Source: a virus
Lineage: Duplodnaviria > Caudoviricetes
DNA: 64,000 nt
Direction: 5' to 3' (one strand)
IMG/VR virus record: IMGVR_UViG_3300010052_000143
Coordinates: 1,270-65,269 of that record
Position 1 is the stretch's first letter. Each line of letters opens with the position of its first letter. A program made the position numbers and the translations under genes. Positions 1,143 through 61,955 of this stretch are shown in pieces. The notes beneath the pieces are model-generated. The model was not told where the DNA came from, made no database searches, and saw only the letters and a list, made by a program, of their open reading frames with translations.

Positions 1143-1199
1143 TCACTATTGACGTGAATCAATTGGCGTTGACATGCGTGAAAGTCAATCCCTGTGTGC
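1143..1199. promoter_or_regulatory. Three TCAC-N7-GTGA-type operator sites upstream of the repressor gene
   Basis: TCACtattgacGTGA 1143-1157, degenerate site ending GTGA at 1181, TCAAtccctgtGTGC 1185-1199. Confidence 0.6.
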
Positions 1200-2600
1200 A
1201 AATATGTCGATGATTCGCTGCTGCGTGACGTCTCGCTCGTTCAACACGGTTAATGCGCGCTCGTCGTATGTTCCCTCTGCAATGATGGGATAGATCAGCA
1301 CCTGTTTCGTCTGCCCGGGCCGCGGAAGACGCATGTTCATTTGCTGCCACAGTTCGAGTGAGAAGGTCAGGCCATACCAGATCATAATGTGACCACCGTA
1401 CTGCGGATTGGTCCCGTGTCCGATCGATGCGGGATGCGCCAGCAACTTGCTGATCTTGCCCTTGTTCCAGTCGCCGATGAGATCGCCCTTGTATTCGTTG
1501 GCGACGACTGCGTCCGGGTAGCGCTTCCTGATTGCGTCCTTGTCGAATTTGAAACTGTAGGCGATCAGCAAGTTCTCACCCTGCGCCGTTTCCACCAGTT
1601 CCTCGAGCGCTTCCATTTTCGCGTCGTGAACATGCACGACAGAGCGGTCCTCGCGATACATATGGCCGTTGGCGAATTGCAGCAGTTTGTTGGCGAGCAC
1701 GCCACTTGAAACAGCCTCGACATCATGGGGCTCGCTGTAGAGCGTCTTTTCGAACTCCCGATAGTCCACCATTGCCTGGGCAGGCAGCCGTACTTGCGTC
1801 GGGATGAAGATCGGATCGTCCGCCACTTTCTCCGGCGGAATGGTCACCAGCAGATGCCCGATTTTCGACAGGATTTCGTCCTCGGCACCCGGCTTCGGGG
1901 TGACGGTATGCGTGTATTTGTCCTTGTCGAAGTAGCGCGTTTCGAAGTCGCTCTTGCTGCGGCCGAGCGCTTGACCCTGGTCGAGTAGATAGGTCTGGCC
2001 CCATAGGGACCGGATGCCCTGCGGCGCCGGCGTGCCGGTGAGCTCGATGACGCGCTCGATCTTGCGACGAGCGGTCGTCATCACGCCGAAGCGGGTCATG
2101 TTGCCACCCGGCCGCTTCTTGATGACGATCTCGCCGGCCTTGTTCACCGTGCGGACCTTGGCCGCTTTCGTGCGCCCTTCTCCCGCCTGGAAGCGGCTTG
2201 ATTCATCGATGACCACAGTGTCCCAGTACCAGTTTTCCACGGTCCTGATGTGCTTGGCGAGCCATTGGAGGTTGTCGAAATTGATCGTCGTCAATTCCGC
2301 CCGCCGCTCGATCGCGGCTATGCGCTCGTCTTCCTCGCCGACGGCGACAGCGACGGATATGCCTCGGGTGTGCTCCCACACGTCGATCTCATCGGGCCAG
2401 GTGTTCGCGGCGACGAACTTCGGCGCGATGACCAGCACATGATGAATTTCGAGCCGGTTGAGCATGTCAACCAATGCCGTGAGAGTGGCGCCGGTCTTCC
2501 CTGAACCCATCCCGCTGATGAGCAGCTTGGCACCGTGCTCGCGGGCGATCTTGGCTATGAGGCGCTGAGACGCGCGCAGGGCAGAACGTGGGCGGATCAC
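1185..2600 (-). CDS. SNF2-like (DEAD/DEAH superfamily 2) phage helicase
   Basis: GMGSGKT Walker A, DESSRF, LTGTP, HPASIGHG motifs; GTG start at 2600 overlaps upstream stop (GTGA). Confidence 0.88.
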   Translation of the reverse strand: MIRPRSALRASQRLIAKIAREHGAKLLISGMGSGKTGATLTALVDMLNRLEIHHVLVIAPKFVAANTWPDEIDVWEHTRGISVAVAVGEEDERIAAIERRAELTTINFDNLQWLAKHIRTVENWYWDTVVIDESSRFQAGEGRTKAAKVRTVNKAGEIVIKKRPGGNMTRFGVMTTARRKIERVIELTGTPAPQGIRSLWGQTYLLDQGQALGRSKSDFETRYFDKDKYTHTVTPKPGAEDEILSKIGHLLVTIPPEKVADDPIFIPTQVRLPAQAMVDYREFEKTLYSEPHDVEAVSSGVLANKLLQFANGHMYREDRSVVHVHDAKMEALEELVETAQGENLLIAYSFKFDKDAIRKRYPDAVVANEYKGDLIGDWNKGKISKLLAHPASIGHGTNPQYGGHIMIWYGLTFSLELWQQMNMRLPRPGQTKQVLIYPIIAEGTYDERALTVLNERDVTQQRIIDIFAHRD

Positions 2601-3646
2601 GCCGCCACCAGCCACGTTTCGAGCGCCGTCTTCGGCCGGCCGGCCAGTCGATCGTCGGCGATCTTCGCGTATGCCGGATTGAGTTCGATCAAGACCGCGT
2701 CGCGGCCGTGCTGCCGTGCGACCATCGCCGTTGTCCCGGCGCCGCCAAACGGATCGAGTACGGTACCGCCTGCCGGGCAGCCAGCGAGGACGCACGGTTC
2801 GATCAGGTCGGGCGGAAATGTTGCGAAATGGGCACCCTTGAAAGGCTTCGGACTGACGGTCCAGACCGACCGCTTGTTGCTCCCCAAACCACGAGCAACG
2901 TCATCAAGGCCGCTCTGATCCGACGACTCGTATTTCGCGTGACGAGGAGGAGTGCCACGAATGCGCGCGATCTTCTCTCGCGCGTTGGCGATGATTCGAG
3001 CCTTCGTGCCACTGGCGGACTGTGCGCCGGCCGCTCGATAGTCCTTGGTGTCGACGCCATCGTAACCGTCGCAGATTTGCTGTAAAAGCGCCTCGCTCGG
3101 CGGGTTTTTGATCGCCTCTGCGTCGTAGAAGTAGCGCGGCGATTTTGACAGCATAAAGATGTATTCGTGCGCCTTCGTACATCGATCACGCACGCTCTCC
3201 GGCATCGGGTTTGGTTTCGACCAGATGATGTCCTGACGCAGATACCAACCATCCGCCTGCAGGGCGAAGGCAACACGCCACGGGATGCCGATCAGGTCTT
3301 TCGACTTCAGCCCAGTGTAGACTTTGTTGCGACCGATCGGCGAGCAATGAAGGGCTGAGACGTGCTTGCCGCCCGTATGACCGCCCCACTTTCCATCGTT
3401 CGCATAGCTGTCGCCAAGGTTCAGCCAAAGAGTTCCGTCATCGCGAAGCACACGGCGGACCTCACGGAACAAATCAACCATGCCGGCGACATACTCGTCA
3501 GGGGTTTGCTCGAGACCCATCTGACCGGTGACACCATAGTCGCGCAGGCCGAAATACGGCGGCGAGGTCACGCAGCAGTGGACGCTGGCATTGGGCATCT
3601 GCCGCAGCACGTCTCGACTGTCACCGACAAGAATTCTGACGGTCAT
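2597..3646 (-). CDS. DNA amino-methyltransferase (N4-C/N6-A, beta class)
   Basis: VTSPPY motif IV near N-terminus, LDPFGGAGTT motif I near C-terminus; ATG 3646 overlaps upstream stop. Confidence 0.9.
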   Translation of the reverse strand: MTVRILVGDSRDVLRQMPNASVHCCVTSPPYFGLRDYGVTGQMGLEQTPDEYVAGMVDLFREVRRVLRDDGTLWLNLGDSYANDGKWGGHTGGKHVSALHCSPIGRNKVYTGLKSKDLIGIPWRVAFALQADGWYLRQDIIWSKPNPMPESVRDRCTKAHEYIFMLSKSPRYFYDAEAIKNPPSEALLQQICDGYDGVDTKDYRAAGAQSASGTKARIIANAREKIARIRGTPPRHAKYESSDQSGLDDVARGLGSNKRSVWTVSPKPFKGAHFATFPPDLIEPCVLAGCPAGGTVLDPFGGAGTTAMVARQHGRDAVLIELNPAYAKIADDRLAGRPKTALETWLVAA

Positions 3647-3960
3647 ACCAGGAGGCTCTGCAACTTGAGGAAGGCGATCGTGTCGGTGCCAGAGTGGAAG
3701 ACATGCACCGTAACGCCGCGCTCGGCGAAGCGCGGAAACTCCAGCGCTTGACCCGCTGACAGCTTCCCCTTCCCCCGTTTCATCTCGATCAGGAGGATCT
3801 TGCCGTAACCGACGAACATGCGATCCGGGCAACTGCGCCTACCGATGTAGGCGATTTTACGCACCAGCCAGCCGTGATTTTCCGCCCACGCAACCGCGTC
3901 GATTTCCTCGTTTGCTTCAAGTTCGCGCGTCTCGAAGTCGAAGTCCTTGGCGACCTTCAT
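3643..3960 (-). CDS. VRR-NUC domain nuclease
   Basis: GRRSCPDRMF...LLIEMKR..GKLSAGQ; canonical position between polymerase and helicase. Confidence 0.85.
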   Translation of the reverse strand: MKVAKDFDFETRELEANEEIDAVAWAENHGWLVRKIAYIGRRSCPDRMFVGYGKILLIEMKRGKGKLSAGQALEFPRFAERGVTVHVFHSGTDTIAFLKLQSLLV

Positions 3961-6975: not shown

Positions 6976-6985
6976 TGAATCACTT

Positions 6986-9460: not shown

Positions 9461-9523
9461 AAGGAATTTCCACGCATTGTGTGAAATCGAGGGCAGCATT
9501 CCACCCTCGATTTCAGCGCTCCA

Positions 9524-12560: not shown

Positions 12561-13046
12561 CTAGAGGTCGAGGTCGTCGGCCGCCTTTGCGGGCGTCGTG
12601 ATGTCGCCCTTCTCGGTGAGCTTCGCGACCTGGCTCTTGAAGAGGTCGATGGCCGATTCCATGATGTCGTCGACGTTCTTCGCGGTCTCGACGCCGGCCT
12701 TCTTGATTTTCTCGTGGTTGAGAAGCGCCTTCATCTTCTCCTTGCGCGCCGTGCGCTCTTCCTCGCGCGGCGAGCCGCCGATGTAGGCAGCGATCAGTTC
12801 CTTGACGCCGTCGTAGGGGTTGCTGGAGTCGGCGGGATCGCGCCGGTCTTCAGGCGACGTCGAGATGTTGGCGCCGGTGCCGGCATCGGTCTTCGTGTCG
12901 GTCTTCTTGCGAGTTGTCGAAGTCGCTGCAGCAGCGGCGCCGACCTTTTCGATGGCGTCGGAGCGAAGGGCGATCAGTTCCTTGGTAACCGAAGCCATCT
13001 CGCGGAGGGCGGCGGTGTTTTCGGCAAGCAGTTGTTCGAGGCTCAC
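12561..13046 (-). CDS. Hypothetical protein, first gene of the leftward replication operon
   Basis: AGGAGA RBS before GTG 13046; LEQLLAENTAAL N-terminus; ends DDLDL. Confidence 0.65.
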   Translation of the reverse strand: MSLEQLLAENTAALREMASVTKELIALRSDAIEKVGAAAAATSTTRKKTDTKTDAGTGANISTSPEDRRDPADSSNPYDGVKELIAAYIGGSPREEERTARKEKMKALLNHEKIKKAGVETAKNVDDIMESAIDLFKSQVAKLTEKGDITTPAKAADDLDL

Positions 13047-13195
13047 TGGTATCTCCTGATTGGGCGGTTTCAATTTCGCCTCATCGTTTTTCCACACAAT
13101 GATTGTAATTTCAAGCCGTCCAGCAAATTTTTCACACATTGATTGCTTTTTTGAAAACGCGTCGATATGGTCCAAGCATCCAACGGGGTGAACAT

Positions 13196-13501
13196 ATGGA
13201 AACGAAGCCAAGCCTGGGCCGGCCGCGCAAAGACGGTCCCAGTGAGATATACTCCGGCGCGTTGTATCAGCTGCTGGTGGCCAAACTGCCTTCCGAACAC
13301 ATCAATTTCGGGAGGATCGACACCGCAAGTTTGGCGAAAGGGACCGGTAACGCACGCTTTACGCTGTACCGGTGGTTCGAAAGCAATAGTCTGTCGAAGG
13401 CCGCGATTCGATCCCTGCTCGAGGTTTCGAAGAACGCCAAGCTCGCGAAAGAGCGCGGAAAGCTGACCAGGGACGACCTGATCCCGTTCATCGGCATCTG
13501 A
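13196..13501 (+). CDS. Small HTH protein (Cro-like)
   Basis: ASLAKGTGNARFTLYRWF HTH; divergent from replication operon, upstream of primase. Confidence 0.6.
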   Translation: METKPSLGRPRKDGPSEIYSGALYQLLVAKLPSEHINFGRIDTASLAKGTGNARFTLYRWFESNSLSKAAIRSLLEVSKNAKLAKERGKLTRDDLIPFIGI

Positions 13502-16360: not shown

Positions 16361-16475
16361 TTCAGGCTGTCGAAAGGACTATTTTCCTCATTTTGACGCT
16401 GAAAAGATCAGATACAGCCCAACTTCGCCCCGTTTCACTGTGAAAATTTTCAAAAAATGCGTGAATCGGGGTTCG

Positions 16476-18953: not shown

Positions 18954-19364
18954 TCAAACCGCTTGAATGACTGTGAAGCCGGCCTGTTCGAGCTTGCGGT
19001 CCCAATAGGATCCGCCGCAATCGGACAGTGCGGCGACAAACTTTATCGTGCGTTCGCGGTCAACTTGCGCCAAGGCGATTTCAGTCATGTTGCGCAGGGA
19101 TCCGTCATGGAAGGATGAGACGTCACGCGGCTTGATGCGCGCGACGGCACTCGCAACGGCGGCGCTGCGCTTGTCGTAACCGCCACCAGACGCAAAGCCG
19201 CGGACCATCGGAACACCGATCCAGTGGACATAGGCGTAAAGGCGGCCGGCGCCGTCGCGCGGAAACTTGAAAGCGATTGTCGCGACGCGTTCGCCGTCCT
19301 TCAGGATGACGTAAGCCGAGACGTTCGCGAAAGCGGCGCGGTGCTGTTCATAAATGTCGGTCAT
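18954..19364 (-). CDS. Hypothetical phage protein
   Basis: ORF preceded by TTTCACACATTG + RBS; GGGYDKRSAA motif. Confidence 0.6.
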   Translation of the reverse strand: MTDIYEQHRAAFANVSAYVILKDGERVATIAFKFPRDGAGRLYAYVHWIGVPMVRGFASGGGYDKRSAAVASAVARIKPRDVSSFHDGSLRNMTEIALAQVDRERTIKFVAALSDCGGSYWDRKLEQAGFTVIQAV

Positions 19365-19392
19365 TTTTTTCTCTCAATGTGTGAAATTTGGG

Positions 19393-20193
19393 TTACAGGA
19401 CGGCCGCGCCGGCGGCCTCATTGAAGGCGTCGCGGCAAGCGGCGTCATGGGTATTCCAGCCCGGCAGCCAGTCGGACACATGGTCACCAGCCGCCAACTT
19501 CTCGCGAGAGGCGCGCAATTCGCGGACGGTTTTCAGGTCGTCGGCCACGTCGCTGCGGATGATTTGGCAAAGCCGGTCATAGGTCGCGCCGGCCGCCTCG
19601 CCCACAAAAGCACGCGCCTTGCGGAATTGAGAGATTGCCGCGCGGATCTCGCCGCGTACTTGCTTGATTTCCTGGCCGATCTCCGCCCAGCGATTACCGG
19701 CCGCACAGGCCGCCTGATACTCGCGTTCCGATTCCGCGTGCCATTCGGCAATCTGATCAGCCCAGCGCGCGGCCGTGTTCTGATCGTCCGTCGTGTCGCC
19801 AAAATCCAGCGCGACCGGGCCGCCGGCGTTCGCTTCGCCATTGTCCGCATCATCATAGCCGGCGACGAAAAGCGGCTTGCCGTAACGCGCCGGTAACTGG
19901 AAAACAACGCCGCGGACGATCGACGATTGACCATTGTCAACGTACCATCCGTCGTGCCGGAGGCCGGCCAGGTCGGACGCGTAACCGACAAAACGGAGCC
20001 CGCATTCGGCCGGCTTCTCGAGCCAGCGCATTGCCTTTGCGCCGCGCGCCGTGAACGGCGGATTCCAGCCGAAGGACTGCGGGTAACGCTTTGTGCCCGA
20101 CACGACGTCATGGCGTGCCGCGCCGAGTGCGACACGCGCCGAGCGGCCGGCGTTGCGGTGGAAGCGATAGGCGGAAAGCAGGGACTCGGACAT
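19393..20193 (-). CDS. Hypothetical phage protein (266 aa)
   Basis: ORF preceded by TTTCACACATTG + GAGG RBS. Confidence 0.65.
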   Translation of the reverse strand: MSESLLSAYRFHRNAGRSARVALGAARHDVVSGTKRYPQSFGWNPPFTARGAKAMRWLEKPAECGLRFVGYASDLAGLRHDGWYVDNGQSSIVRGVVFQLPARYGKPLFVAGYDDADNGEANAGGPVALDFGDTTDDQNTAARWADQIAEWHAESEREYQAACAAGNRWAEIGQEIKQVRGEIRAAISQFRKARAFVGEAAGATYDRLCQIIRSDVADDLKTVRELRASREKLAAGDHVSDWLPGWNTHDAACRDAFNEAAGAAVL

Positions 20194-20219
20194 TGGATTT
20201 TCCTCTCAATGTGTGAAAA

Positions 20220-20922: not shown

Positions 20923-20959
20923 GTGATTTACTCCCAATGTGTGAAAGTTAAGCCGTGGG

Positions 20960-21187: not shown

Positions 21188-21312
21188 TCGACTCCGTGTT
21201 GGTAACTTTCACACTAAACGTGAAATTAGAACGGCTGTCAACACGCATTGTGTGATTTTTCGGGGAGGAGGCAGGAAGCCTGACGCCAGTCGTTGGGCTT
21301 CCTGGTATCGCG

Positions 21313-22134
21313 CTAGGTGCGAGCTTCGATCTTGTCGAGCCGTGCGAGTATGGAGTCCATGATGTCGAGCAAGGAGTCGCGGTCTAGCCAATGTTCGACA
21401 GGTTCAGCAGCAATGGCGTTCCTCGGCTGGGGCAGATAGCGCCGGTGTTCCTGGACGTGAACGACCTTCTGATTTCGGCACGCCGCAAACAATTCGACCA
21501 GTTGCTTTCGTACCGTTTCGGCTTTCGCCGCGCCGGATCGATCGCAGAGCGCCAGCGTTTGCGCCTCATTCAGGAAGTAGTCATTTCCGTACTTGCCGCG
21601 CCCAATGTAATTTTCCGCACGGCACGGAATATTGCCGAAGGCGTCAAGCTCGTCGTAATTGCGGGAAACGAGCCGGCGGATATCACCATGATCAGCCTCA
21701 AGCCATTGCGCCAGATCGGCGGCACGGATGCGAGGCACTCCGCCGACGTCGACAACAGCCGTGGCGGGGAGCAACTGCGGCGTCGGCTTATATCCGTGCG
21801 CATAGACGACATCGCCCTTGGTCCGGTATGTCAGGAACAATTCGATGAGCTGCTTTCGCACTTCGATCGCTTTTGCCGTGCGCGACAGCGAGCACAACAC
21901 AAGCGCTTGTCCCTCGTTTAGATAGTAGGCTTTGCCGGGACGACCGCGTCCGGTCAGGTTTTCCGCACGGCACGGAAAATTGCCAAATGCTTCGAGTTCG
22001 TCGCGGTTGCGGGCGATGAGCTCGCGGATGTTGAGCGGCTTCAGGAACCCAAGCCACTTTGCAAGATCCACGTCACGGACTCGCGGCTCGGATTCGACTT
22101 CGATCACTGCGCTGATTGGTATGAGGTTTTGCAT
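21313..22134 (-). CDS. Antirepressor/Rha-like DNA-binding protein with two tandem homologous domains
   Basis: PR(V/I)R..DLA.WL...IR.L..RN.DEL.AFGN.PCRAEN...Y.LNE.Q.L.LC..S..AKA..VRKQL.ELF occurs twice. Confidence 0.7.
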   Translation of the reverse strand: MQNLIPISAVIEVESEPRVRDVDLAKWLGFLKPLNIRELIARNRDELEAFGNFPCRAENLTGRGRPGKAYYLNEGQALVLCSLSRTAKAIEVRKQLIELFLTYRTKGDVVYAHGYKPTPQLLPATAVVDVGGVPRIRAADLAQWLEADHGDIRRLVSRNYDELDAFGNIPCRAENYIGRGKYGNDYFLNEAQTLALCDRSGAAKAETVRKQLVELFAACRNQKVVHVQEHRRYLPQPRNAIAAEPVEHWLDRDSLLDIMDSILARLDKIEART

Positions 22135-22185
22135 TTCAGGCTTCCTTGGTCAGGTTAAGCCCGGTTGCCACGCTTCGAAACATGG

Positions 22186-22261
22186 CGGCCAGGCAACAAC
22201 GGGTTCGAAGACCGGAGGAAGCCACCGGCGAGCCTTACGGCTCCCCATTGCGCCTGACCAT
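22186..22261 (-). ncRNA. C4-like antisense RNA
   Basis: Closing stem TGGTCAGGCGCAATGGG/CCCGTTGTTGCCTGGCC, GAGCC-GTAA-GGCTC hairpin, CCGG-loop-CCGG hairpin, CTTCGAACCCG segment complementary to an upstream target; lies 5' of the antirepressor. Confidence 0.72.
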
Positions 22262-22409
22262 AGAAAAAGCGCCGCGAGGCGGATGTCCCATGGCGCTTGC
22301 GCGCTTCCCATTTGGCGGCTTCGAACCCGCACACCGACTCCGTCAGTGCACGACAAGCTAAGCGCGAAATTGAGTCGCTTGCAAGCCCTTTCATAAACTA
22401 TCTGCAAAG

Positions 22410-22455
22410 TCAATCAATGTGTGAAAAATAAATACCTATTTCACACATTGATTGA
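22410..22455. promoter_or_regulatory. Inverted operator pair upstream of the C4/antirepressor promoter
   Basis: TCAATCAATGTGTGA 22410-22424 and its reverse complement TCACACATTGATTGA 22441-22455. Confidence 0.65.
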
Positions 22456-22549
22456 AAGTATGCTTTGGTGTAGGGCCACCGATGAATTTGTGACCGAATG
22501 AAGCGACACGACGAAAACCTGTCTGGCAGCCCATGTTTGTCTAGGCCAA

Positions 22550-22651
22550 GAGAAATCTGCGCCACGGAGAAATCTATACGGGCGTAAGGGAAAAGGCGAC
22601 CCAGAGAAATCTGCATTCGGTAAGGAGTGCGTGCGCGAGCCGGAGAAATCT
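22550..22651. repeat. Four direct GAGAAATCT repeats
   Basis: Copies at 22550, 22567, 22604, 22643. Confidence 0.7.
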
Positions 22652-22654
22652 GCG

Positions 22655-23044
22655 CTAGAACTCAATTCCGACCGACTTGCAAGATTCCGAGATAGGTCTG
22701 CGCCCATCTTCGTCAGTCAATCTTAGATCAATCACCCGAAACTTTCTCTCGGCGCTGCTCTCGTAGATAAATAGGGTGTTGAACACCGATTTACCGGCAT
22801 AACCGCCGAATGCGTTCTTCGCATTTACCAAGCCGCAAACCATTTTAGCTCCTGGACCACCAGGCTTCGTTGCTTTCATAACTCCAAACTTTGCACTGTC
22901 TGGATCTTTGAGGCGATCCTTTACCGCACTTTCAATGAACGCGCGCTCCTCTTCGGAGAGGTCGTAAGGCTGCGCCCGACCTACACTAGGTGCGAATGCC
23001 GCCAGAAAGGCGCCGCACAAAGCAACGAGAACAGCTTTTCGCAT
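22655..23044 (-). CDS. Secreted hypothetical protein (moron)
   Basis: Signal-peptide-like N-terminus; LKDPDSAKF...VCGLVNAKNAFGGY motif. Confidence 0.65.
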   Translation of the reverse strand: MRKAVLVALCGAFLAAFAPSVGRAQPYDLSEEERAFIESAVKDRLKDPDSAKFGVMKATKPGGPGAKMVCGLVNAKNAFGGYAGKSVFNTLFIYESSAERKFRVIDLRLTDEDGRRPISESCKSVGIEF

Positions 23045-23215
23045 CGACGAAGCCCTCAGAGAAAATCCGAGACAAGCATAGGTCTTGAACCGCGGCAAGG
23101 TGACCCGTTAGCCAAACACCCCTCCGCCTCGATTCCGGAGCCTCAGAGAAAACGCAAAGCCAATTGACTATTACATCCAGGCCGATTCATTTTTCCGCAC
23201 CGCACGGAAAAACCC

Positions 23216-23398
23216 ATGACCAAGCAATCACCCCGCGAACGCGCTGCCCGAGCACTTTGCCGGCTCGATGGCCACTTCGAGAATACGACCTTCGAGGGCA
23301 AGCCTATGTGGCAATCTTACCTGGCGCAGGTCGACGCCGTGCTTCAGGCCGCCCTACCGCCTGACCAATGGGACCGGCTGCGCGATAGCCGGGAATAG
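23216..23398 (+). CDS. Small hypothetical protein (60 aa)
   Basis: SPRERAARALC...PMWQSYL; between repeat copies 1 and 2. Confidence 0.6.
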   Translation: MTKQSPRERAARALCRLDGHFENTTFEGKPMWQSYLAQVDAVLQAALPPDQWDRLRDSRE

Positions 23399-23554
23399 CG
23401 ACCCGCGCCCCTAGCCACCAAACCCCCTCCCCCCCCCCCCTCGATTCCTGGAGCCTCGGGAAAACGCAAAGCCAATTGGCGTCTACCAGCGGCGCCCTCA
23501 TTGCTCTTGGCTCAGTCGCTGTCTATAGAGGAGAAAATACGTGGGGGGACCAGA

Positions 23555-24094
23555 GTGGAAACTGCTTCCGAGCCTAAAGAAACACTTATTCGTCTTCTCG
23601 AAGACAATGGGACATGGGCAGAATTTGAAGCCGATTGGCAGGCTCAATGCGAAAAGTACGATGAAGACTTTGAGTCTTATGCCGAAGCGACATTCTCCGT
23701 CATCAGAGATCTAATACGATCTGAAAAGACAAAAGCCGGTGTTTTCGCGCTGAAAATGAACGGTTCGTTCGTGGCTATGTGCCAAGTGAACAAGGCCGGT
23801 CTACCGAAATACGACAGCCCTGTGATGCGTGTGCGGTTCATGACGCTGTCGCCAGAATTTGACTTGGCGGACAAATCGATTCACGAATATGGAGACGTGC
23901 TGGTTTCGCTGCTTGCGACAGTGCTTCAATTGGCCTACTTCGATCCAGAGCTATCGTGCATGCACATCAAGTTTCATTTGCGTAGCCAAGCGGACCAGCA
24001 GTTTTTTGCGACCCTCGGAAAAGGGTTACAAGATCGTAACCTGTTTCAGTCTATCAAAACTCGCGGCGCGTGGTTATATATCACTCGAAAATAG
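23555..24094 (+). CDS. Lower-GC moron protein, possible GNAT-like fold (track start 23501)
   Basis: GVFALK..GSFVAMCQVN...MRVRFMTLSPEFD strand pattern; AT-richer codons. Confidence 0.55.
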   Translation: METASEPKETLIRLLEDNGTWAEFEADWQAQCEKYDEDFESYAEATFSVIRDLIRSEKTKAGVFALKMNGSFVAMCQVNKAGLPKYDSPVMRVRFMTLSPEFDLADKSIHEYGDVLVSLLATVLQLAYFDPELSCMHIKFHLRSQADQQFFATLGKGLQDRNLFQSIKTRGAWLYITRK

Positions 24095-24155
24095 CGGAAC
24101 CCTTAGGGCTCCGTCGCATTGGGGGAGGACGCGTTCTGTGGAAAGGTCGACGACC

Positions 24156-24293
24156 ATGAATATGAACATCAGGAAAGAACTCCATGAAGCGGTGACGCTT
24201 GCGATCAAGGAGATCGGCCTGGAGAAGTTCAAAAAGACGTCCTTCTTCATGAGCAACGATCGAGGCACCGCTGAGCTGAAACACGCAGCCTAG
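24156..24293 (+). CDS. Small protein (45 aa)
   Basis: MNMNIRKELHEAVTLAIKEIG...LKHAA; terminator follows. Confidence 0.5.
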   Translation: MNMNIRKELHEAVTLAIKEIGLEKFKKTSFFMSNDRGTAELKHAA

Positions 24294-24312
24294 AATCCCT
24301 TTCTGGAGACCT

Positions 24313-24339
24313 AAAGCCCCGGCTAGTCCGGGGCTTTTT
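24313..24339 (+). terminator. Rho-independent terminator
   Basis: AAAGCCCCGG-CTAGT-CCGGGGCTTTTT. Confidence 0.8.
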
Positions 24340-24495
24340 GCATTTTAGGCCTTAGCTTCTCCGGCCACCAAACACCCCTCCCCCTCGATTCCAGCCCCAT
24401 GGAGAAAACGCAAAGCCAAAATATTTTCACACATAGTTTGACTTTCACAGTTTGTGTGATTTATATAGATCATCGAATTGGGAAGGAGCAGTCGG

Positions 24496-29286: not shown

Positions 29287-29296
29287 TTTTCACACA

Positions 29297-29494
29297 TTGT
29301 GTGCAATTATGGTCGATGAGGATGATAGCGATTACCTGGCCAGCTGCCATGGGAAGGAACGACACACCGCATCAATGGCCCGGCAAATCGTCAAGCGCTA
29401 TCCCCAGGCAGTCATCTACAAGTGCTCGTTTTGCCAGCAGCACCATATCGGCCATCGTCAGTCGAAGCCAAAAAAGACCCTGAAATCCGTCTGA
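29297..29494 (+). CDS. Small Zn-finger-like protein
   Basis: SCHGKERH...YKCSFCQQHHIGH. Confidence 0.45.
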   Translation: MCAIMVDEDDSDYLASCHGKERHTASMARQIVKRYPQAVIYKCSFCQQHHIGHRQSKPKKTLKSV

Positions 29495-29828: not shown

Positions 29829-29857
29829 TTCATTTTTCACACATTGGGAGAAATATC

Positions 29858-31094: not shown

Positions 31095-31146
31095 CGATCC
31101 AATATTTCACACTTAGTGTGTATTTCAATCAAATCGGAGAAATCCT

Positions 31147-31449
31147 ATGGCAGGTATCGGGCACACTTCGCGCAGCGACAGCGACGACATCACCGAGACG
31201 TCGCAGACTGTCGCCGCCGGCCAGCTTCGAGCCCTGATCGAGCGCATCGAGCGGCTGGAGGAAGAGAAGAAGACCATCGCCGATGACATCAAGGATGTCT
31301 TCGCCGAGGCGAAAGGCACCGGCTTCGACACCAAGGCACTCCGCACGATCATCCGACTTCGCAAGAAGGATGCTGCGGAGCGGGCGGAGGAAGAAGCAAT
31401 CGTCGACCTCTACATGGCCGCGCTCGGCATGGCGCTCGACGACATCTGA
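31147..31449 (+). CDS. gapR: DUF2312/GapR-like nucleoid-associated protein
   Basis: [48 protein letters not shown]. Confidence 0.85.
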
Positions 31450-32353: not shown

Positions 32354-32382
32354 CTTTCACACAATGTTGGAAATAATTCCTG

Positions 32383-33861
32383 ATGAACTCCATCCAACTG
32401 ATCCCCGGCGACAACCGCATCTCGCTTCGCCGGCTGATCGACCAGGGCGTGCGTGTCCATTCGGTCGTGACCGATCCGCCGTATGGGCTCGTCTCGATCC
32501 AGAAGCGCTTCGGCAAGGAAGGTGCAGCCGCCGCGCGGCGTGAAGGCAACGACGGAAGCTTCGCGCGGCTGTCCGGTGGCTTCATGGGCAAGGCGTGGGA
32601 CGGCACCGGCATCGAGCGCGATCCCGAGTTCTGGAAGCTGATCTACGACATCCTGCTGCCGGGCGGCTATGTCTTCGCGTTCAGCGGCAGCCGCACCGGC
32701 CACTGGCAAGCCTGCGCCATGGAGATTGCAGGCTTTATCATGCATCCGATGCACGGCTGGGTGTTCGGGAGCGGATTCCCGAAGGCGCACGCGGCCGACA
32801 AGGCGATCGACAAACATCTCGGCGTTGAAGGCGGCTTCATTGCCGAAGGCGAGCCGGTCAAGCGAATGATCCCCGGCGCCGACCAGCATCGTGAGGGCTC
32901 GTGGATCAAGGACGACGGTCGTGAGTACCAGCCAGGTTCCTACGTTCCCGGTTCTCCCGAGGCAGCAGAGTGGGAAGGCTGGGCCTACGGCACCCAGACG
33001 CAGAAGCCTGCGATCGAACCTATCTATCTCGGTCAGAAACCGTTCAGCGAGAAGACCGGCGCCGCCAATCTGCTGAAGCACGGCGTCGGTGCGGTCAACA
33101 TTGATGAATGTCGGGTGCCTGCTGACGGCCGCCCACTTCTTGTCGGCGACTACAAACCGACCAGGGCCAACGCCTATTCAGGACGGATGGACGGTTCCCT
33201 TGCCGGAGGCAGCAAGGCAGTCGGGACGACCGACACCGGCCGCCATCCATCCAACTTGATCCTAGACGGTTCGCCCGAGGTGGTCGCCATGTTTCCGTCG
33301 CAGGCCGGCGCAGCAGCAGCCAGCGGCCCGACCCAATCCGGTAAGTCGAAAAGCGGCAGCATGGCCGGGCACTTCAACGGCATGGGCGATCGGCCACCGC
33401 AATTCCATGGCGACACCGGCTCCGCGGCCCGCTTCTTCCACCATTTTCCTCCGGATGCGGACCCACTGATCTACCACCCAAAGGCGGGCAAAGCTGACCG
33501 GGCCGGCAGCAGCCATCCGACAGTCAAGCCGGTCGCCCTGCTGCGCTATCTGATGCGCCATATCACTCCAAAGTGTGGGATAGTTTTAGACCCCTTCGCA
33601 GGCTCGGGAACCACTGGACAGGCTGCAAAGCTCGAAGGTTTCGACTGCATTTTGATGGAAGCCGAGCCGGAATACGTCGAATTTATCAACACCCGTTTCG
33701 ACCTGGTGGATGCTGCGCCGGTCTACGTTGACCCAAGGGAGACTCCAATGATAGGAATGAAATCCTACGACCTAAGCGAGCTGCTTGGGCCCGATGACAA
33801 CGATCTGACGTCCTTGCTGGATGACGTTGCGTCCGTTGTGCCAGACGCGCTCCTTGTATGA
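32383..33861 (+). CDS. DNA amino-methyltransferase (N6-A/N4-C, beta class)
   Basis: VTDPPYG, GSGFPK, HPTVKP, LDPFAGSGTT. Confidence 0.88.
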   Translation: MNSIQLIPGDNRISLRRLIDQGVRVHSVVTDPPYGLVSIQKRFGKEGAAAARREGNDGSFARLSGGFMGKAWDGTGIERDPEFWKLIYDILLPGGYVFAFSGSRTGHWQACAMEIAGFIMHPMHGWVFGSGFPKAHAADKAIDKHLGVEGGFIAEGEPVKRMIPGADQHREGSWIKDDGREYQPGSYVPGSPEAAEWEGWAYGTQTQKPAIEPIYLGQKPFSEKTGAANLLKHGVGAVNIDECRVPADGRPLLVGDYKPTRANAYSGRMDGSLAGGSKAVGTTDTGRHPSNLILDGSPEVVAMFPSQAGAAAASGPTQSGKSKSGSMAGHFNGMGDRPPQFHGDTGSAARFFHHFPPDADPLIYHPKAGKADRAGSSHPTVKPVALLRYLMRHITPKCGIVLDPFAGSGTTGQAAKLEGFDCILMEAEPEYVEFINTRFDLVDAAPVYVDPRETPMIGMKSYDLSELLGPDDNDLTSLLDDVASVVPDALLV

Positions 33862-37073: not shown

Positions 37074-37240
37074 GGCATCTCCTTCCCGCATGAGCGGGTC
37101 GATTCGAGATTGAATTTCGGATTTTGATGGCCGCGCGCCGCGACGGTGCCCAAGTTCATGGCGGTTTCCCTTTAACGGCGCATATGTCTGCGACCGTTAC
37201 TTGCACACATTTACCTGTTTTTCAAGCATTGTGTGATTTC

Positions 37241-39961: not shown

Positions 39962-40003
39962 GACACACTCCGATCATGGATGAATATCACGCAATGTGTG
40001 ATT

Positions 40004-40879
40004 TTAATAGAACTGGTTTTTCGGCGACAATGGGTTTTCGAGGGGAATGAACGGCTGCCCTCCATAATTCTGGATATTGCTGTGCGTGTTGCAGCCGCTC
40101 ATCAGCCGGTTGCAGCCTCGGCTGAGCGAAATGGTGGTGCCGGCGCTCACCCCCCGTGCGGTGCCGCGAAGTGTCACAATGAAGCCGGTCGCATCGACCG
40201 CTACTATCGTCCGCAGTTCTTTCAGCGATGTCGCCGGGTTGGTCCATTGGGCGAGACCGCCAACATAGAGCGCTCTGTTGGTGCCGAGACCCGCACTGAG
40301 ACTGACGACGTTTCGATCAACGTCGGCCACCCCGCGCGCCACAGTCGCAGCAGGGCGGCTTGCTTGGCAGTGCGGGCCGTATAGGACGTGGGGGCAGCCA
40401 ATCGAGTACGGCCGGCGCAGTCCCGGCCGCCGAATGGCAGTCGAGACAGGCACGCAATTCAACTCGATCTCGTTGGTGATGTAGCTCGCGCTGACGATGC
40501 GCCCCATCCACACGCAGGGATAATCGTTTGGCTCGTCGCCGACATGCCCTTCGAAGATGGTGAGATTCACCACTTGCGATGGCGGATACGCCAGGAACAG
40601 GTCATCGATCGGAGTTCCAAGTGCCGCCGTCACGTTGATATCGGACTTATCGAGTGTGCCGTCGCTGCTGATGTCGCCCTTCTTGATCGGCCACGGCTGG
40701 TAGACAATCACGACCGATGTTCCGCCGATAACGTGCGTCCTCGTGATCGGCGCCTCGCCATCGCAGAATCCCCAAGGTCCGAGCGGAGGTTCGCCGGGAC
40801 CATTGTTGGCGCCGAGAACAAGATACAAGGTGACAGGCTGTCCGCTATGACGGCTTGATTCTCTGACGTCGAAGGTCAT
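40004..40879 (-). CDS. Tail hub/minor tail protein (DUF2163/BR0599, gpL-like)
   Basis: GCPHVLYG..C, RGCNRLMSGC...N..NYGGQPFIP cysteine cluster. Confidence 0.8.
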   Translation of the reverse strand: MTFDVRESSRHSGQPVTLYLVLGANNGPGEPPLGPWGFCDGEAPITRTHVIGGTSVVIVYQPWPIKKGDISSDGTLDKSDINVTAALGTPIDDLFLAYPPSQVVNLTIFEGHVGDEPNDYPCVWMGRIVSASYITNEIELNCVPVSTAIRRPGLRRPYSIGCPHVLYGPHCQASRPAATVARGVADVDRNVVSLSAGLGTNRALYVGGLAQWTNPATSLKELRTIVAVDATGFIVTLRGTARGVSAGTTISLSRGCNRLMSGCNTHSNIQNYGGQPFIPLENPLSPKNQFY

Positions 40880-41505
40880 TCGCCGATCTCCCAATCCACG
40901 ATCGACGCCGCGTCGACATCGGCCAAATCTTGCGCAGCCCGCACGGCGCGTTTGGCGCTCAGCCGGCGACGCTCGATCTCGGCGGAGATGAAGGTCCATG
41001 CATCGGCCGTCGCGATGATCTCGGCGGCCTTGGCGGCGACCGTGACGCCTTCGTCCATCGCCTCCATGACGACGTGCGGGATTTCGTTCGGCTCGATTTC
41101 CGGGTCGGCAGTGACCAGGCGCGCTTCCAACAGCTTCTGTTGGTAAACCATGGCCTGTCCGGAACCAAGGGTGATGTATTGCCCACGCGTCGCTTCGGCC
41201 TCGCGGTCGATCTTCGCGAGGTGCTGTTCGCGCACAGCTGCGATTTCCGCCTGCATATTGATCACGACCCGTCCTACGGTGTCGATCGCGGGGTTTGTCT
41301 GTTGGACTAGTACCGGCCAGCGTTCACCCTGGTGCTGGTCATCCTCGATCAGGTGGATGGAATATTGCGCCTTGTCTTCGAGGTAGATCGTCGCCCCGGG
41401 TAGCACGTCATAGACGACGCCCTTGCAGAGGATTTGCACCGGGAGCGCGTTCTGAAGGGAGATTTCATTGTCAGAAAGCCGGAGCGGAGTAATGATATTT
41501 TTCAT
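40876..41505 (-). CDS. Tail fibre-associated / assembly protein
   Basis: IDREAEATRGQYIT.GSGQAMVYQQKLLEAR; follows fibre gene. Confidence 0.55.
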   Translation of the reverse strand: MKNIITPLRLSDNEISLQNALPVQILCKGVVYDVLPGATIYLEDKAQYSIHLIEDDQHQGERWPVLVQQTNPAIDTVGRVVINMQAEIAAVREQHLAKIDREAEATRGQYITLGSGQAMVYQQKLLEARLVTADPEIEPNEIPHVVMEAMDEGVTVAAKAAEIIATADAWTFISAEIERRRLSAKRAVRAAQDLADVDAASIVDWEIGE

Positions 41506-44880: not shown

Positions 44881-46159
44881 CTTGCCAGACGCCGGCGTCG
44901 CGCCAGTGTCCGGTTGCCAAGATCCAGTTGTTGCCGAAGCTGCCCTCGGCTGAGAGGTTCACGAGCGTGGTGAACGACAGGGAGACATCCGCCACCCCAT
45001 TGGTCTTCCAGTTCAGAGTCAGGCTGTCCTGTGCAAAGCGCGCAACGAACATCCACGAGATGATCTCGATATTCGCGGCAGTGATGCCGATATTGGTGTC
45101 GAACGTGATCGCCGTGTCACCGCCGACGATGGCCATCGACACGATCGAGCGCGGCACGAGGTCGCCGTTCCTGTTGCGAAAAAGCGCCGCGACATGGGCC
45201 GGATTGCCGTTGTAGGTGTTGTAGAAGTCGACGCCGGCGACCGTGACGACCTTGGCGGCAACTGTTTTCACCGCGGGGAAATCGTTGCCCCAAGTGGGCA
45301 CGTAAATCTCGCCTGCCCTACCCTTTGCCCGAACAAAGATGTCCAGCAACGCCATCGCCTCGGCGCGGGAGGATGCCAAGTATGTGGCAGTCAGCGTGCG
45401 GCTGACAATCGGTACCGGCGTGAAGGTTTTCGTGATGCCCCGATCATAGTCCACCACCTCGTGCGACACCTGAAAAGCCATTTGCGGGCGTTGCAGATAG
45501 TTCGGCTTCCGCAGCAGCACATATCGACCGTAGAGCAGCGCCGCAGGCCCAAAGACCTGAGTTGTCTCACCGGTTGGCCCGCCATCGAACGGCAGAGCGT
45601 CGGCCTCGCGTACGGTCGTGCCGGGTTCGACCTCAAAGCGAACTGACGACGTTGCCACCATCGTTGTGTGCAACGACAGAGTGGTGGAATTGGCCACAGA
45701 CGCTGGGAGGATGGGGAGCAAATAAGCGCCGGCGCCAACTGCCGCGGCCAGTGCAGTGGACAGGACCACCTGGTTGCCCGAGATGAAATCGACGGCGACT
45801 TTGACCGCGCTGCGACCGCTCTGAAGGACGCAACTCATGCTTCCGATCAGCCACGCCGGCACATGGTCGACATGAAGGATTGTCGAACCGATTTCGGCCG
45901 TCGCGGTGACGGCTGCGCCGTCAGCAGAGAAGTCGCCTATCTCGACTTTGCCATCGATCGCCTTGGTGATGGCATCGGAAAACACCCGCAAACGAGCGCC
46001 ATCGAGCACCAGGGCGGCTTCGATGGAGCGGCGCGGTTGCGTTCGAAGAGAACGGCGCTGCTCTGTCTTGTCCCTGCTGATAAAGATGTCGGTCTTGAAT
46101 TCGTAGGTGTCCCGAACTCCGTTTTTCCAATTCGGGACTATGGGTAGGAATGTCGCCAC
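44858..46159 (-). CDS. Minor tail (distal tail) protein
   Basis: PNW..GV..TYEFKTDI..S..KTEQRRSLR; follows tape measure. Confidence 0.7.
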   Translation of the reverse strand: MATFLPIVPNWKNGVRDTYEFKTDIFISRDKTEQRRSLRTQPRRSIEAALVLDGARLRVFSDAITKAIDGKVEIGDFSADGAAVTATAEIGSTILHVDHVPAWLIGSMSCVLQSGRSAVKVAVDFISGNQVVLSTALAAAVGAGAYLLPILPASVANSTTLSLHTTMVATSSVRFEVEPGTTVREADALPFDGGPTGETTQVFGPAALLYGRYVLLRKPNYLQRPQMAFQVSHEVVDYDRGITKTFTPVPIVSRTLTATYLASSRAEAMALLDIFVRAKGRAGEIYVPTWGNDFPAVKTVAAKVVTVAGVDFYNTYNGNPAHVAALFRNRNGDLVPRSIVSMAIVGGDTAITFDTNIGITAANIEIISWMFVARFAQDSLTLNWKTNGVADVSLSFTTLVNLSAEGSFGNNWILATGHWRDAGVWQDGSVWED

Positions 46160-46219
46160 GGTCAGCCATTTTTCACATCTTTGCGTGTATTTAACGCAAT
46201 GTGTGATTTTTGGCAACGA

Positions 46220-51214: not shown

Positions 51215-51259
51215 TATTTCACTCCTTTGCTTGTTTTCCACACATAGCGTGATTTTCTA

Positions 51260-58249: not shown

Positions 58250-58473
58250 CCCCAAACCGGCCGCAGCGGTCGGCGCGCATCGGCGGAAGTACCGGCAAGC
58301 TGCGCTTTGAGATCGGCGATGTAGGCTTTCAGACGAGAGACATTGGCGGACGTAAAGCGAATGCTCTCGCCGTTGCTGTCGCGAACTTCGACGGCGGCAC
58401 GACCGAGAACGAGATCGCGCATTGCGGCCTCTGCTTCGGCGAGCCATGTCTGCAGTTCGGAAGTTGTCGCCAT
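58246..58473 (-). CDS. Head-tail joining protein gpW
   Basis: LAEAEAAMRDLVLG..AVEVRDSNGESIRFT.AN...LKAYIADL. Confidence 0.85.
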   Translation of the reverse strand: MATTSELQTWLAEAEAAMRDLVLGRAAVEVRDSNGESIRFTSANVSRLKAYIADLKAQLAGTSADARRPLRPVWG

Positions 58474-58563
58474 CGAGAGTCCTGCCCGGAAGTTCCCAAC
58501 CCAGTTACAGTCAATTCGGTCATTTTGCAAGCATTGTGTGTATTTCACAGTATACGTGAAAGT

Positions 58564-60744: not shown

Positions 60745-61435
60745 CGGTCACCGGTTCGTCGGGCAGTGTGCCGGCGGCGTTCAGTTCCATGTGGATGGTG
60801 TGAGCCATCGACTGTGTCTTGAACTGCTGTGGCATCTCGACCAGAGCCTTGCGAATCTGCTCGTTGAGCCGGTTCGTAGCGTCGATAATCGCGTTGTATT
60901 GCTCGTTGGTCAGCAAGTCCTTTTCGGGCAAATCGTCCACCCATGACTTGCTCTCCTCGCGGATCAGCATCAGGACGCGGCCGAAGACCATCATCACGTC
61001 TTCATCGTGCCAAAGCTGGTTCGACGATCGCATGACGCGGTTGCGCTGGTGCGCCGAGTCCCACCACATCTTGTTGACGTAGGGCGGCAGGCTGGCGGCA
61101 TTCTGTTGCGCGAACCAGTCCTCGATATTGCCCTGCGGCGGAATGAGGAATGACAGGGCGGTGATGAAATCATAGAGCGGCTGTTGCTTGCCGCCGTGGC
61201 TCGTCAACTTCTCGACCGGGCACTTTTCGAGCCGCTTCTGGATCTGCTTCGGCTGCTTGCCGAGGATATTGGCGAGGAAAGTGACGCCGACTGGACGCCG
61301 GAATTCGGTGTAGTGCGGCAGATCGGATGCCATCGCGGCTTGCAGCTTTGCCGCAGCCTCCTCACGCGTCGGCCGACCTGGACCGCGACGAGGTGGAGCG
61401 CTGTCGCCGAGCAATTCGGTCAAATCCCCACTCAC
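60731..61435 (-). CDS. Terminase small subunit (DUF1441-like)
   Basis: Directly upstream of terL; SLPPYVNKMWW...LWHDEDV. Confidence 0.7.
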   Translation of the reverse strand: MSGDLTELLGDSAPPRRGPGRPTREEAAAKLQAAMASDLPHYTEFRRPVGVTFLANILGKQPKQIQKRLEKCPVEKLTSHGGKQQPLYDFITALSFLIPPQGNIEDWFAQQNAASLPPYVNKMWWDSAHQRNRVMRSSNQLWHDEDVMMVFGRVLMLIREESKSWVDDLPEKDLLTNEQYNAIIDATNRLNEQIRKALVEMPQQFKTQSMAHTIHMELNAAGTLPDEPVTDDDS

Positions 61436-61617
61436 GAAAAATCACCATCCCTCTCGTCAAGAAATGCAGCACGATCGACGCGATGACCCTTGTCGCAGTG
61501 ATCGACATGAAAGCGGACCTGTTCGGATGGCCGCGCCTGCAGTTTCTCGCTCGGAAGGCGGTTCACCCTGCCTTCAGCGACGGCCTGCGCAATGAGATCG
61601 TGCAGGTCGTTCGTCAT
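61432..61617 (-). CDS. Hypothetical protein (61 aa)
   Basis: ATGA/GTGA overlaps with AlpA and terS. Confidence 0.55.
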   Translation of the reverse strand: MTNDLHDLIAQAVAEGRVNRLPSEKLQARPSEQVRFHVDHCDKGHRVDRAAFLDERDGDFS

Positions 61618-61793
61618 GCCAAAGTGGCCCTCACCCAAGCCTGAACATCACTGTTCGACCAGACTGATACGCGATGCGAGAGGCGTCTTGGCTTCGGAAA
61701 ACGCCCTTCGCTAACGCGGCGATAAATCGTCGCCTTTGGCATGGCGACGATCTCGCAAACGGTCTTCAAGCGGATCAATCGGTCTTCGGCCAT
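61614..61793 (-). CDS. AlpA-family HTH regulator / excisionase
   Basis: LIRLKTVCEIVAMPKATIYRRVSEGRFPKP..LS.RVSVW..SDVQAW. Confidence 0.85.
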   Translation of the reverse strand: MAEDRLIRLKTVCEIVAMPKATIYRRVSEGRFPKPRRLSHRVSVWSNSDVQAWVRATLA

Positions 61794-61955
61794 GCGCGAA
61801 ACTCCCTTCTCGTTCGCAATACCGATAATCACATTTTGCGTGACTTTCAACCCAATGTGTGAAAATTGAAGCGAGGCGATGGCGTTGGAGGAATGGTTAC
61901 CCAGGATCGCCCACGGTAACGAAATCGGCGAAGCGGTGGAGCAAGGAGAAAATCA

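Follow-up and report, generated by a model that had tools for sequence, protein, structure and literature searches.

A 19-bp dyad, TTTCACACATTGTGTGAAA, with the core TCAC-N7-GTGA, is the most over-represented word of the window (the whole stretch of 64,000 nt analysed here), in which it occurs in ~25 copies, and it most probably serves as the target of a single phage-encoded repressor predicted to silence the whole prophage. The binder would be the XRE-family protein encoded at 439-1122, acting as a dimeric, CI-like repressor on all of these predicted operators, a reading to which we assign a probability of about 0.6. The source record consists of a provirus alone (65,269 bp), and the window covers most of the 65-kb provirus, which was assigned to the Chi-like family Casjensviridae, whose integration adjoins a tRNA, and whose host is probably an alphaproteobacterium. 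The type of circuit is already known; for Casjensviridae it was previously undescribed, and no description of the motif was found in the literature searched.

Form, enrichment, and placement of the dyad

The exact core TCAC-N7-GTGA was observed 7 times (expectation from dinucleotide shuffles, 1.13), a count reached in 0 of 100 shuffles. Six of these seven copies are intergenic; the one at 44959, which has a GC-rich centre and lies within a tail gene, looks like a chance occurrence. Motif words ranked first in an unbiased 8-mer scan (12-14 copies vs. ~1 expected), and the 12-mer TTTCACACATTG, with at most two mismatches, gave 24 matches compared with 3.4 in whole-genome shuffles. Intergenic DNA alone held 23 matches to this 12-mer against 0.62 in composition-matched shuffles, so the AT-richness of the gaps does not explain the motif. 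A half-site weight-matrix scan returned 24 sites of at least 10 bits (mean null maximum, 9.2). The consensus is a perfect 19-bp dyad in which CAC at positions 4-6 is invariant, and the half-site centres are 11 bp apart, which corresponds to one helical turn.

The dyad sites are intergenic in 23-24 of 24 cases and lie at gene junctions, six late-operon junctions among them (Table 1). A genome-wide, operator-like network in the gaps between genes had been proposed from the sequence-only reading, and both enrichment and placement bear this out: every coordinate listed there was checked and carries the sequence described, and the sites between co-directional late genes follow TerL and the tape measure gene and precede the major tail and endolysin genes. 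What had been taken for half-sites, on the other hand, are actually full 19-bp sites with a degenerate 3' half, often because this half coincides in part with the next gene's ribosome-binding site.

Table 1. Predicted operators and candidate regulatory genes in the window.
Feature	Position	Strand	Context
XRE-family protein, 227 aa, best candidate binder	439..1122	-	PF01381 HTH_3; phrog_2967/phrog_4
Predicted operator	1141..1159	-	Exact TCAC-N7-GTGA, directly upstream of XRE gene's ribosome-binding site
Predicted operator	9468..9486	-	27 bits
Predicted operator	13090..13108	+	Divergent control region, 12561-13046(-) vs. Cro-like/primase operon
Predicted operator	13130..13148	+	Divergent region 12561-13046(-)/Cro-like operon; overlaps -35-like hexamer of a putative promoter
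Cro-like protein, alternative binder	13196..13501	+	Homologous to RcRios gp2, an HTH protein (1e-14)
Weaker possible site	16448..16466	-	15.3 bits; convergent gap after primase-helicase gene
Predicted operator	19368..19386	-	3' half overlaps ribosome-binding site of gene 18954-19364
Predicted operator	20200..20218	-	3' half overlaps ribosome-binding site of gene 19393-20193
Predicted operator	20928..20946	-	Gene junction, leftward early operon
Predicted operator, exact core	21207..21225	-	Downstream of Rha/Bro gene
Predicted operator, near-full	21239..21257	-	32 bp from site 21207
Rha/Bro-type antirepressor-like protein	21313..22134	-	phrog_63 Ant, PF09669, PF02498
Tandem pair, weak 22389 + strong 22408	22389..22426	-	Facing left, divergent early control region; sigma-70-like match uses motif as first hexamer
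Predicted operator facing right	22439..22457	+	With 22408 forms a 48-bp inverted repeat
Tandem pair, 18 bp apart	24425..24461	+	Over -35/spacer of a putative promoter, start of rightward early operon
Best full palindrome	29288..29306	+	32.7 bits
Predicted operator	29835..29853	+	3' half overlaps pyrophosphatase gene's ribosome-binding site
Predicted operator	31105..31123	+	Upstream of GapR-like gene; position conserved in G1, G2, RcRios
Predicted operator	32355..32373	+	Upstream of DNA methyltransferase gene 32383-33861
Tandem pair, weak 37201 + site 37220	37201..37238	-	Between tail protein and endolysin genes
Predicted operator	39985..40003	-	Abuts stop codon of tail-assembly gene 40004-40999; syntenic in G1, G2, RcRios
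Predicted operator	46190..46208	-	11 nt past stop codon of tape measure gene
Predicted operator	51236..51254	-	Between tail terminator and major tail protein genes
Tandem pair, 18 bp apart	58525..58561	-	Directly after TerL stop codon, before head-tail adaptor gene
AlpA/excisionase-like small DNA-binding protein	61614..61793	-	PF05930 (1.6e-13); first gene of late-strand block
Tandem pair, 19 bp apart	61827..61864	-	Upstream of AlpA-like gene and TerS, head of late operon

The conserved half is 5' relative to local transcription in 20 of the 23 informative sites (p = 5e-4), a bias for which overlap with ribosome-binding sites may account in part. Motifs that are oriented with transcription and abut ribosome-binding sites could also act at the RNA level, by terminating transcription as a hairpin, by directing processing, or by serving as a translational operator beside the ribosome-binding site. 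We judge this very unlikely, because the hairpins predicted have little stability (0 to -6 kcal/mol, with 7 of 25 sites unstructured), the mirror pairing reaches only 4-7 of 7, and some of the sites face both ways within divergent promoter regions. In addition, it is base identity rather than pairing that is conserved: relatives keep both arms of the dyad, but within each arm conservation is confined to the outer four bases.

Conservation in relatives and the candidate repressor

Matching gene junctions of related proviruses bear the same core, and the core and many dyad positions are conserved in related temperate Casjensviridae. In a dyad search run without prior assumption, TCAC-N7-GTGA came out at or near the top in G0, G1, G2, and the Shimia prophage, TCAA-N7-TTGA was top in the more distant relatives AchV4, RHph_X2_30, and KPN_BP, and no such dyad was found in the virulent phage Chi. 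The site before the major tail gene is syntenic in all eight of the XRE-bearing phages examined and absent in Chi, while the site after the TerL stop codon is also present in G1, G2, RHph_X2_30, and KPN_BP. AchV4 has few or no late-operon sites, and a roadblock role is therefore not general.

The half-sites loosely resemble several bacterial operator words, which would fit a regulon of a host transcription factor co-opted by the phage. This explanation is highly improbable, since the AT-centred form is found only on prophage contigs in the genomes of relatives' hosts (6 of 6 sites in the 4.7-Mb Shimia genome, and likewise in a 2.6-Mb Rhodobacteraceae genome), the dyad architecture recurs in phages of alpha-, beta-, and gamma-proteobacteria, and the half-site tracks a phage protein. 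That the motif might be equally frequent in host intergenic DNA, the outcome named beforehand as speaking against a phage network, is thus contradicted in the host of a relative (Shimia), where the sites are prophage-specific.

The phage protein in question is the XRE protein, whose PF01381 match (1.8e-6) is above the cut-off; Pfam gave only HTH_3. Its AF2 model (pLDDT 83) combines a CI-like HTH with an Hjc/PD-(D/E)xK-like C-terminal domain, and in Foldseek the model matched Hjc resolvases as well as the N-terminal domains of TP901-1 CI and lambda CI. Neither a Peptidase_S24 nor a LexA-type self-cleavage domain was found in it with Pfam, and the matches of the C-terminal fold are nuclease-like. 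Every complete genome with the motif has an XRE ortholog and Chi has none; no other DNA-binding candidate compared shows this distribution (the XRE region is missing from G1, whose contig is truncated). In 7 of 7 phages, the gene for the XRE ortholog is immediately preceded by a site; in the present provirus, this site (1141..1159) likely mediates XRE autoregulation. One residue of the recognition helix tracks the half-site type for the most part: Glu-Thr occurs with TCAC, and Glu/Gln-Ala or Glu-Ser with TCAA, the sister pair RcRios/Gemmobacter included. The exception is Ruegeria V16, which has Ala yet carries TCACC-type sites. The XRE tree is poorly resolved.

The sequence-only reading had left the choice of binder between the XRE and the Cro-like protein. 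The phyletic pattern, the site upstream of its own gene, and the partial covariation of helix and half-site favour the former. A different phage binder, whether the Cro-like protein 13196-13501, the 161-aa protein 12561-13046, or the AlpA-like protein, seems improbable: two sites do fall in the divergent stretch that separates 12561-13046 from the Cro-like gene, and the Cro-like protein, which had no Pfam or PHROG match, is homologous to the annotated RcRios HTH protein, but among the motif-bearing relatives only G2 and RcRios yielded orthologs of the Cro-like and 161-aa proteins; none were found in the dyad-bearing Shimia prophage, AchV4, RHph_X2_30, KPN_BP, or AH2.

The authors of the AchV4 study independently called its XRE ortholog cI-like, and this phage yielded no lysogens (PMC7996906). 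Orthologs occur also in phages that behave as lytic in the laboratory (AchV4 and the Ruegeria phages), so the protein may be a timing regulator rather than a lysogeny repressor. Their presence in apparently lytic phages (PMC7996906) is also compatible with positive control, in which the sites would be phage promoter or activator sites for lytic expression, bound by XRE as an activator or by another factor. We regard this as unlikely, though it has several points in its favour: the orientation bias is strong, with the conserved half upstream; the sites are just 5' of genes, with a conserved position ahead of the major tail gene, which is highly expressed; and the half-site resembles a -35 hexamer, with a -10-like hexamer overlapping the right half in some relatives. 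However, many sites end 1-10 nt before a start codon and contain the ribosome-binding site in their 3' half, which leaves no room for a -10 element and leader, and there is no -10-like element at a fixed distance. Moreover, the major capsid gene has no site in the window, and the dyad symmetry in relatives better suits a dimeric operator than a promoter. Promoter-like hexamers coincide with sites 22408 and 24443; the sigma-70-like count was not above that of shuffles, and promoter calls are weak in a probable alphaproteobacterial host.

Proposed mechanism and comparison with known systems

Under the preferred reading of a dimeric XRE repressor, each HTH of the dimer would read one TCAC half-site, the resolvase-like C-terminal domain would supply dimerisation, and sites 18-19 bp apart would permit paired binding. 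In the lysogen, XRE would be made from its own promoter and limit itself via site 1141, and it would occlude early promoters at 13090/13130, 22389-22457, and 24425-24461. It might also sit at the internal junctions of the early and late operons, where it would cover internal promoters or obstruct RNA polymerase that reads through; from the 20:3 bias in orientation, the effect may be polar. The Rha/Bro-type protein is a possible induction route. Because no LexA-type self-cleavage domain was detected, release would more likely proceed via this antirepressor-like protein than via RecA-driven self-cleavage.

Lambda-type CI/Cro proteins use dyad operators with TCAC-containing half-sites, arranged in tandem over early promoters, with one upstream of the repressor gene; in lambda itself, six operators are clustered at two control regions, and the CI C-terminus is an S24 self-cleaving peptidase. 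The XRE/CI-like HTH, the dyads with TCAC half-sites, the tandem sites, and the site upstream of the candidate repressor gene are all lambda-like, whereas the half-site spacing is two base pairs wider here, ~25 sites are dispersed, and the C-terminal domain of the candidate is resolvase-like instead of an S24 peptidase. The c repressor of the Streptomyces phage phiC31 binds conserved inverted repeats dispersed through the genome, and the C1 repressor of coliphage P1 has many scattered operators. Both share with the present phage the combination of one (here, candidate) repressor and many scattered operators, and the phiC31 sites are likewise palindromic, although the phage families and hosts are unrelated. 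Sets of repressor sites that span the genome and extend to late operons are well documented chiefly for actinobacteriophages.

In cluster A mycobacteriophages (L5 gp71, Bxb1 gp69), at least 20 repressor sites are distributed genome-wide in short co-directional gaps, including those of late genes, with a strong orientation bias relative to transcription (PMC9283540, PMC6550527), and the sites are asymmetric, 13-14 bp long, and bound by a monomer via two domains (PMC9283540). An L5/Bxb1-like polyoperator system had been suggested for this DNA. The likeness holds for the dispersed sites in short intergenic gaps, late operons included, and for one prevailing orientation (20/23 here); it fails for geometry, as the sites here are 15-19 bp, dyad-symmetric, and suited to a dimer, rather than asymmetric sites of 13-14 bp (PMC9283540), and the phages here are those of Proteobacteria. 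As for the protein, the present candidate matched only HTH_3/XRE in Pfam, its C-terminal domain has an Hjc-like fold, and its best PDB sequence and fold matches are other HTH proteins.

A stoperator-like layout in a proteobacterial family, with a different site geometry and an unusually built candidate repressor, suggests that this strategy evolved more than once. We propose, tentatively, that temperate Casjensviridae may share an old, family-wide silencing circuit in which a CI-like HTH fused to a catalytically dead resolvase-fold domain acts on TCA(C/A)-N7-(G/T)TGA dyads, that in one clade the circuit may have spread to the late operon, where the sites would act as oriented, polar roadblocks, an independently evolved proteobacterial counterpart of stoperators, and that immunity specificity may be reset largely by one recognition-helix residue. 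The conserved junction sites, together with the natural TCAC/TCAA variants, provide a test system for silencing of a whole prophage by a dimeric repressor, and the same sites and variants suit tests of one-direction stopping of RNA polymerase by bound dimers and of changes in immunity specificity. When Casjensviridae prophages are annotated, the dyad can also serve as a simple sequence marker of regulatory regions and immunity groups.

Form and frequency of the dyad in the provirus

The source record is a single IMG/VR sequence of class provirus (65,269 bp, 96% complete), of which the window covers bases 1270-65269. The motif TCAC-N7-GTGA is present in seven exact copies against 1.13 expected, and its words rank first in a prior-free k-mer scan. 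Allowing up to two mismatches, the 12-mer was matched 24 times versus 3.4 in shuffles, and 23 times versus 0.62 in composition-matched shuffles when intergenic DNA alone was considered. A half-site matrix scan gave 24 sites that score higher than the null maximum usually does; 23 are outside called genes and one falls in a doubtful ORF extension. The consensus of 25 sites is a perfect 19-bp dyad, TTTCACACATTGTGTGAAA, with C4, A5, and C6 invariant. At each coordinate listed in the sequence-only reading we found the sequence as described, and its "half-sites" are full-length sites in which the 3' half is weak and often serves also as the ribosome-binding site of the following gene. Neighboring sites are frequently 18-19 bp apart (24425/24443, 58525/58543, 61827/61846, 22389/22408, and 37201/37220), and the conserved half is upstream relative to local transcription at 20 of 23 informative sites (p = 5e-4).

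We have little doubt (probability about 0.9) that the dyads are protein-binding operators of a phage factor. Action at the RNA level is unlikely: folding predicts weak hairpins or none, and base identity is kept rather than pairing. The DnaA box, CRP, parS, LexA, and CtrA sites, considered as possible likenesses, do not fit in geometry or symmetry, and the motif differs in relatives. Most sites have no -10 hexamer at the right distance, which argues against a general sigma-70 -35 hexamer. A second set of enriched 8-mers, seen in the provirus and phage RcRios, consists of coding-sequence words and does not represent a motif.

Features of the provirus and their positions (window coordinates unless marked as record)
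Feature	Position	Strand or direction	Remarks
tRNA gene, anticodon CAT	record 248-321		5' of window; adjoins tyrosine integrase gene
Near-site TCAC-N7-GTGC	record 387-405		between tRNA and integrase genes
XRE protein	439-1122	-	227 aa, HTH
161-aa protein	12561-13046	-	
Cro-like protein	13196-13501	+	
Replication block		leftward	helicase, methyltransferases, DNA polymerase, exonucleases
Primase-helicase gene		opposite to replication block	
Two early blocks	~22.1-24.5 kb	divergent	
Lower-GC region	22134-24420		GC 0.54; separates the two divergent early regions; operator sites at borders only, none within
Strong terminators in lower-GC region	24313-24337; 24095-24113	+; -	
GapR-like nucleoid protein	31147-31449	+	PF10073, 2.8e-35; preceded by operator site
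Late block		leftward	AlpA-like, TerS, TerL, adaptor, portal, protease, capsid, tail terminator, major tail, tape measure, tail proteins, endolysin
Y-family DNA polymerase-like gene (phrog_1268) and more genes	61956-64000	+	opposite strand; zero operator sites

The tRNA gene is probably the attachment site; no matching att repeat of at least 13 nt was found at the opposite end of the record. Gene order beyond the integrase follows the Chi-like (Casjensviridae) layout. The lower-GC region is consistent with cargo genes expressed in the lysogen, and the right-end genes could be either such cargo or host DNA past the true prophage end.

Dyads in related phages and their hosts

The closest named phages are those of the Rhodobacter capsulatus RcD cluster, with 55% identity in TerL; other Casjensviridae come next. 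Because of the GapR-like gene and the alphaproteobacterial prophage relatives, we infer an alphaproteobacterial host. The tape measure gene had no megablast match among phage records, and single-protein scans detected no XRE relatives in viral contigs and no TerL relatives in genome contigs; finding relatives took an alignment-based scan.

The IMG/VR relatives G1 and G2 (TerL 79 and 68% identical, respectively) both lack the exact 12-mer of the provirus. TCAC-N7-GTGA is enriched in both (9 and 10 copies), at N7 spacing only, around an AT-rich center different from that of the provirus. An unbiased scan of every 4-mer/gap/reverse-complement dyad, with no assumed motif, placed TCAC-N7-GTGA at or near the top in the provirus, G1, G2, and the prophage of a Shimia MAG (TerL 39%), with 6-10 copies versus 0.7-1.3 expected. 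TCAA-N7-TTGA was top in Achromobacter phage AchV4 (11 versus 0.5 expected), Rhizobium phage RHph_X2_30 (15 versus 1.5), and Klebsiella phage YMC16/01/N133_KPN_BP (KPN_BP; 13 versus 0.7). The same scan found no enriched dyad in the virulent Salmonella phage Chi. RcRios has three to four TCAC-type sites and Burkholderia phage AH2 a few CAAC-N5-GTTG sites; CACG-N5-CGTG and CAAC-N9-GTTG, enriched in RcRios and Ruegeria phage V16, are mostly GC-rich coding matches.

The positions of the sites are also conserved. In seven of seven phages the XRE ortholog has a site immediately upstream; sites are also present at the tail terminator/major tail junction in all eight XRE-bearing phages (each with its own half-site type) and after the TerL stop codon in five genomes (the provirus, G1, G2, RHph_X2_30, and KPN_BP), while Chi has none of these syntenic sites. 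The sequence-only reading would have been refuted by a motif equally common in host intergenic DNA; in the hosts of relatives the AT-centered sites proved to be prophage-only, and on this point the motif held up. All six AT-centered dyads of the 4.7-Mb Shimia genome are on the prophage contig, and the AT-centered dyad of a 2.6-Mb Rhodobacteraceae genome is likewise confined to its prophage contig.

Other repeated elements were seen in the relatives. The most enriched 8-mer of phage Chi (segments L015 and L016) is the E. coli-type Chi octamer GCTGGTGG, with 28 copies over both strands combined versus 2.6 expected. AH2 (segments L057-L059) carries six near-identical promoter-like elements. In each of them a consensus -35 and a -10-like hexamer enclose a 17-bp inverted repeat, ACAC-N9-GTGT, so that AH2 has a second repeated control element distinct from the XRE-type dyads.

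The XRE protein as candidate binder

The XRE, GapR-like, Cro-like, and 161-aa proteins were compared as candidate binders. Of these, the XRE protein alone is represented in all complete motif-bearing genomes and missing from Chi; its ortholog always comes after the helicase gene. For the Cro-like protein and the 161-aa protein, orthologs were found in G2 and RcRios only. Of the two candidate binders named in the sequence-only reading, the XRE protein is favored. The GapR-like protein is kept in alpha-hosted G1, G2, RcRios, the Shimia prophage, RHph_X2_30, and V16 and is absent from Chi, AchV4, and KPN_BP; the last two bear dyads, and it was rejected as binder. From this distribution, the XRE protein is probably the factor that binds the dyads.

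In the main XRE clade (ten genomes), residue 3 of the recognition-helix segment tracks base 4 of the half-site, Thr going with TCAC and Ala or Ser with TCAA. The set includes a sister pair, RcRios (Thr) versus a Gemmobacter prophage (Ser), as well as a Caulobacteraceae prophage with Ala that branches within the Thr forms. A second, distant clade breaks the rule, as the Shimia prophage (Thr) and V16 (Ala) are both TCACC-type. Because of the V16 exception and the poorly resolved XRE tree, we take the rule, which is not universal, as supporting evidence for XRE binding, not proof.

The AlphaFold model of the XRE protein (pLDDT 83) has two domains. The N-terminal domain is modeled as an HTH resembling its counterparts in the CI proteins of TP901-1 and lambda. 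Structural matches to the C-terminal domain are PD-(D/E)xK nucleases, Hjc Holliday-junction resolvases among them (Foldseek E = 6e-4, target TM ~0.6). An S24 peptidase domain is absent. Because no catalytic lysine is conserved among 18 aligned homologs, the C-terminal domain is read as a putative dimerization module.

Proposed mode of action and known systems

The dyads would be bound by an XRE dimer, and the half-site centers, one helical turn apart, would suit two HTH units on one face of the DNA. The early-region sites at 13090/13130, 22389-22457, and 24425-24461 (tandem, divergent) coincide with promoter-like hexamers, and binding there may occlude early promoters. The XRE gene, whose upstream site comes after a -35-like hexamer, would have its own promoter and negative autoregulation through that site. 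The corresponding site of AchV4 and KPN_BP directly adjoins the start codon. In these two phages (L042:1400-1510 and L044:1400-1500) a clear -35/-10 pair is followed immediately by the operator, the last bases of which overlap the XRE start codon. By analogy with lambda cI transcribed from P_RM, a leaderless or near-leaderless repressor mRNA is suggested for both.

In G1, G2, and AchV4 the site preceding the major tail gene shares part of its right half with a -10-like hexamer. Sites at internal junctions may cover internal promoters or, alternatively, act as roadblocks; the orientation bias favors a polar effect of some kind. We propose only tentatively that the network serves lysogenic silencing, with polar blocks at internal sites.

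The stoperator likeness drawn by the sequence-only reading is good for number, placement, and orientation bias of the sites, in which cluster A mycobacteriophages agree, but fails for site symmetry (PMC9283540, PMC6550527). The AchV4 paper named the XRE ortholog cI-like and did not mention the dyads (PMC7996906), nor did the RcD-cluster paper, and searches of the published literature with several spellings found no description of the motif. Lambda-type CI with its dyad operators is a closer match for the protein-site pair, although here the sites are dispersed ~25-fold and the C-terminal domain is different. Dispersed palindromic operators are present in phiC31 and P1.

The operator network is real, non-random, phage-specific, and conserved across a phage family, and the comparison of these genomes points to a credible putative binder. 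The architecture of the candidate repressor, an HTH joined to a resolvase fold in which an Hjc-like fold replaces the S24 peptidase, may merit a study of its own.
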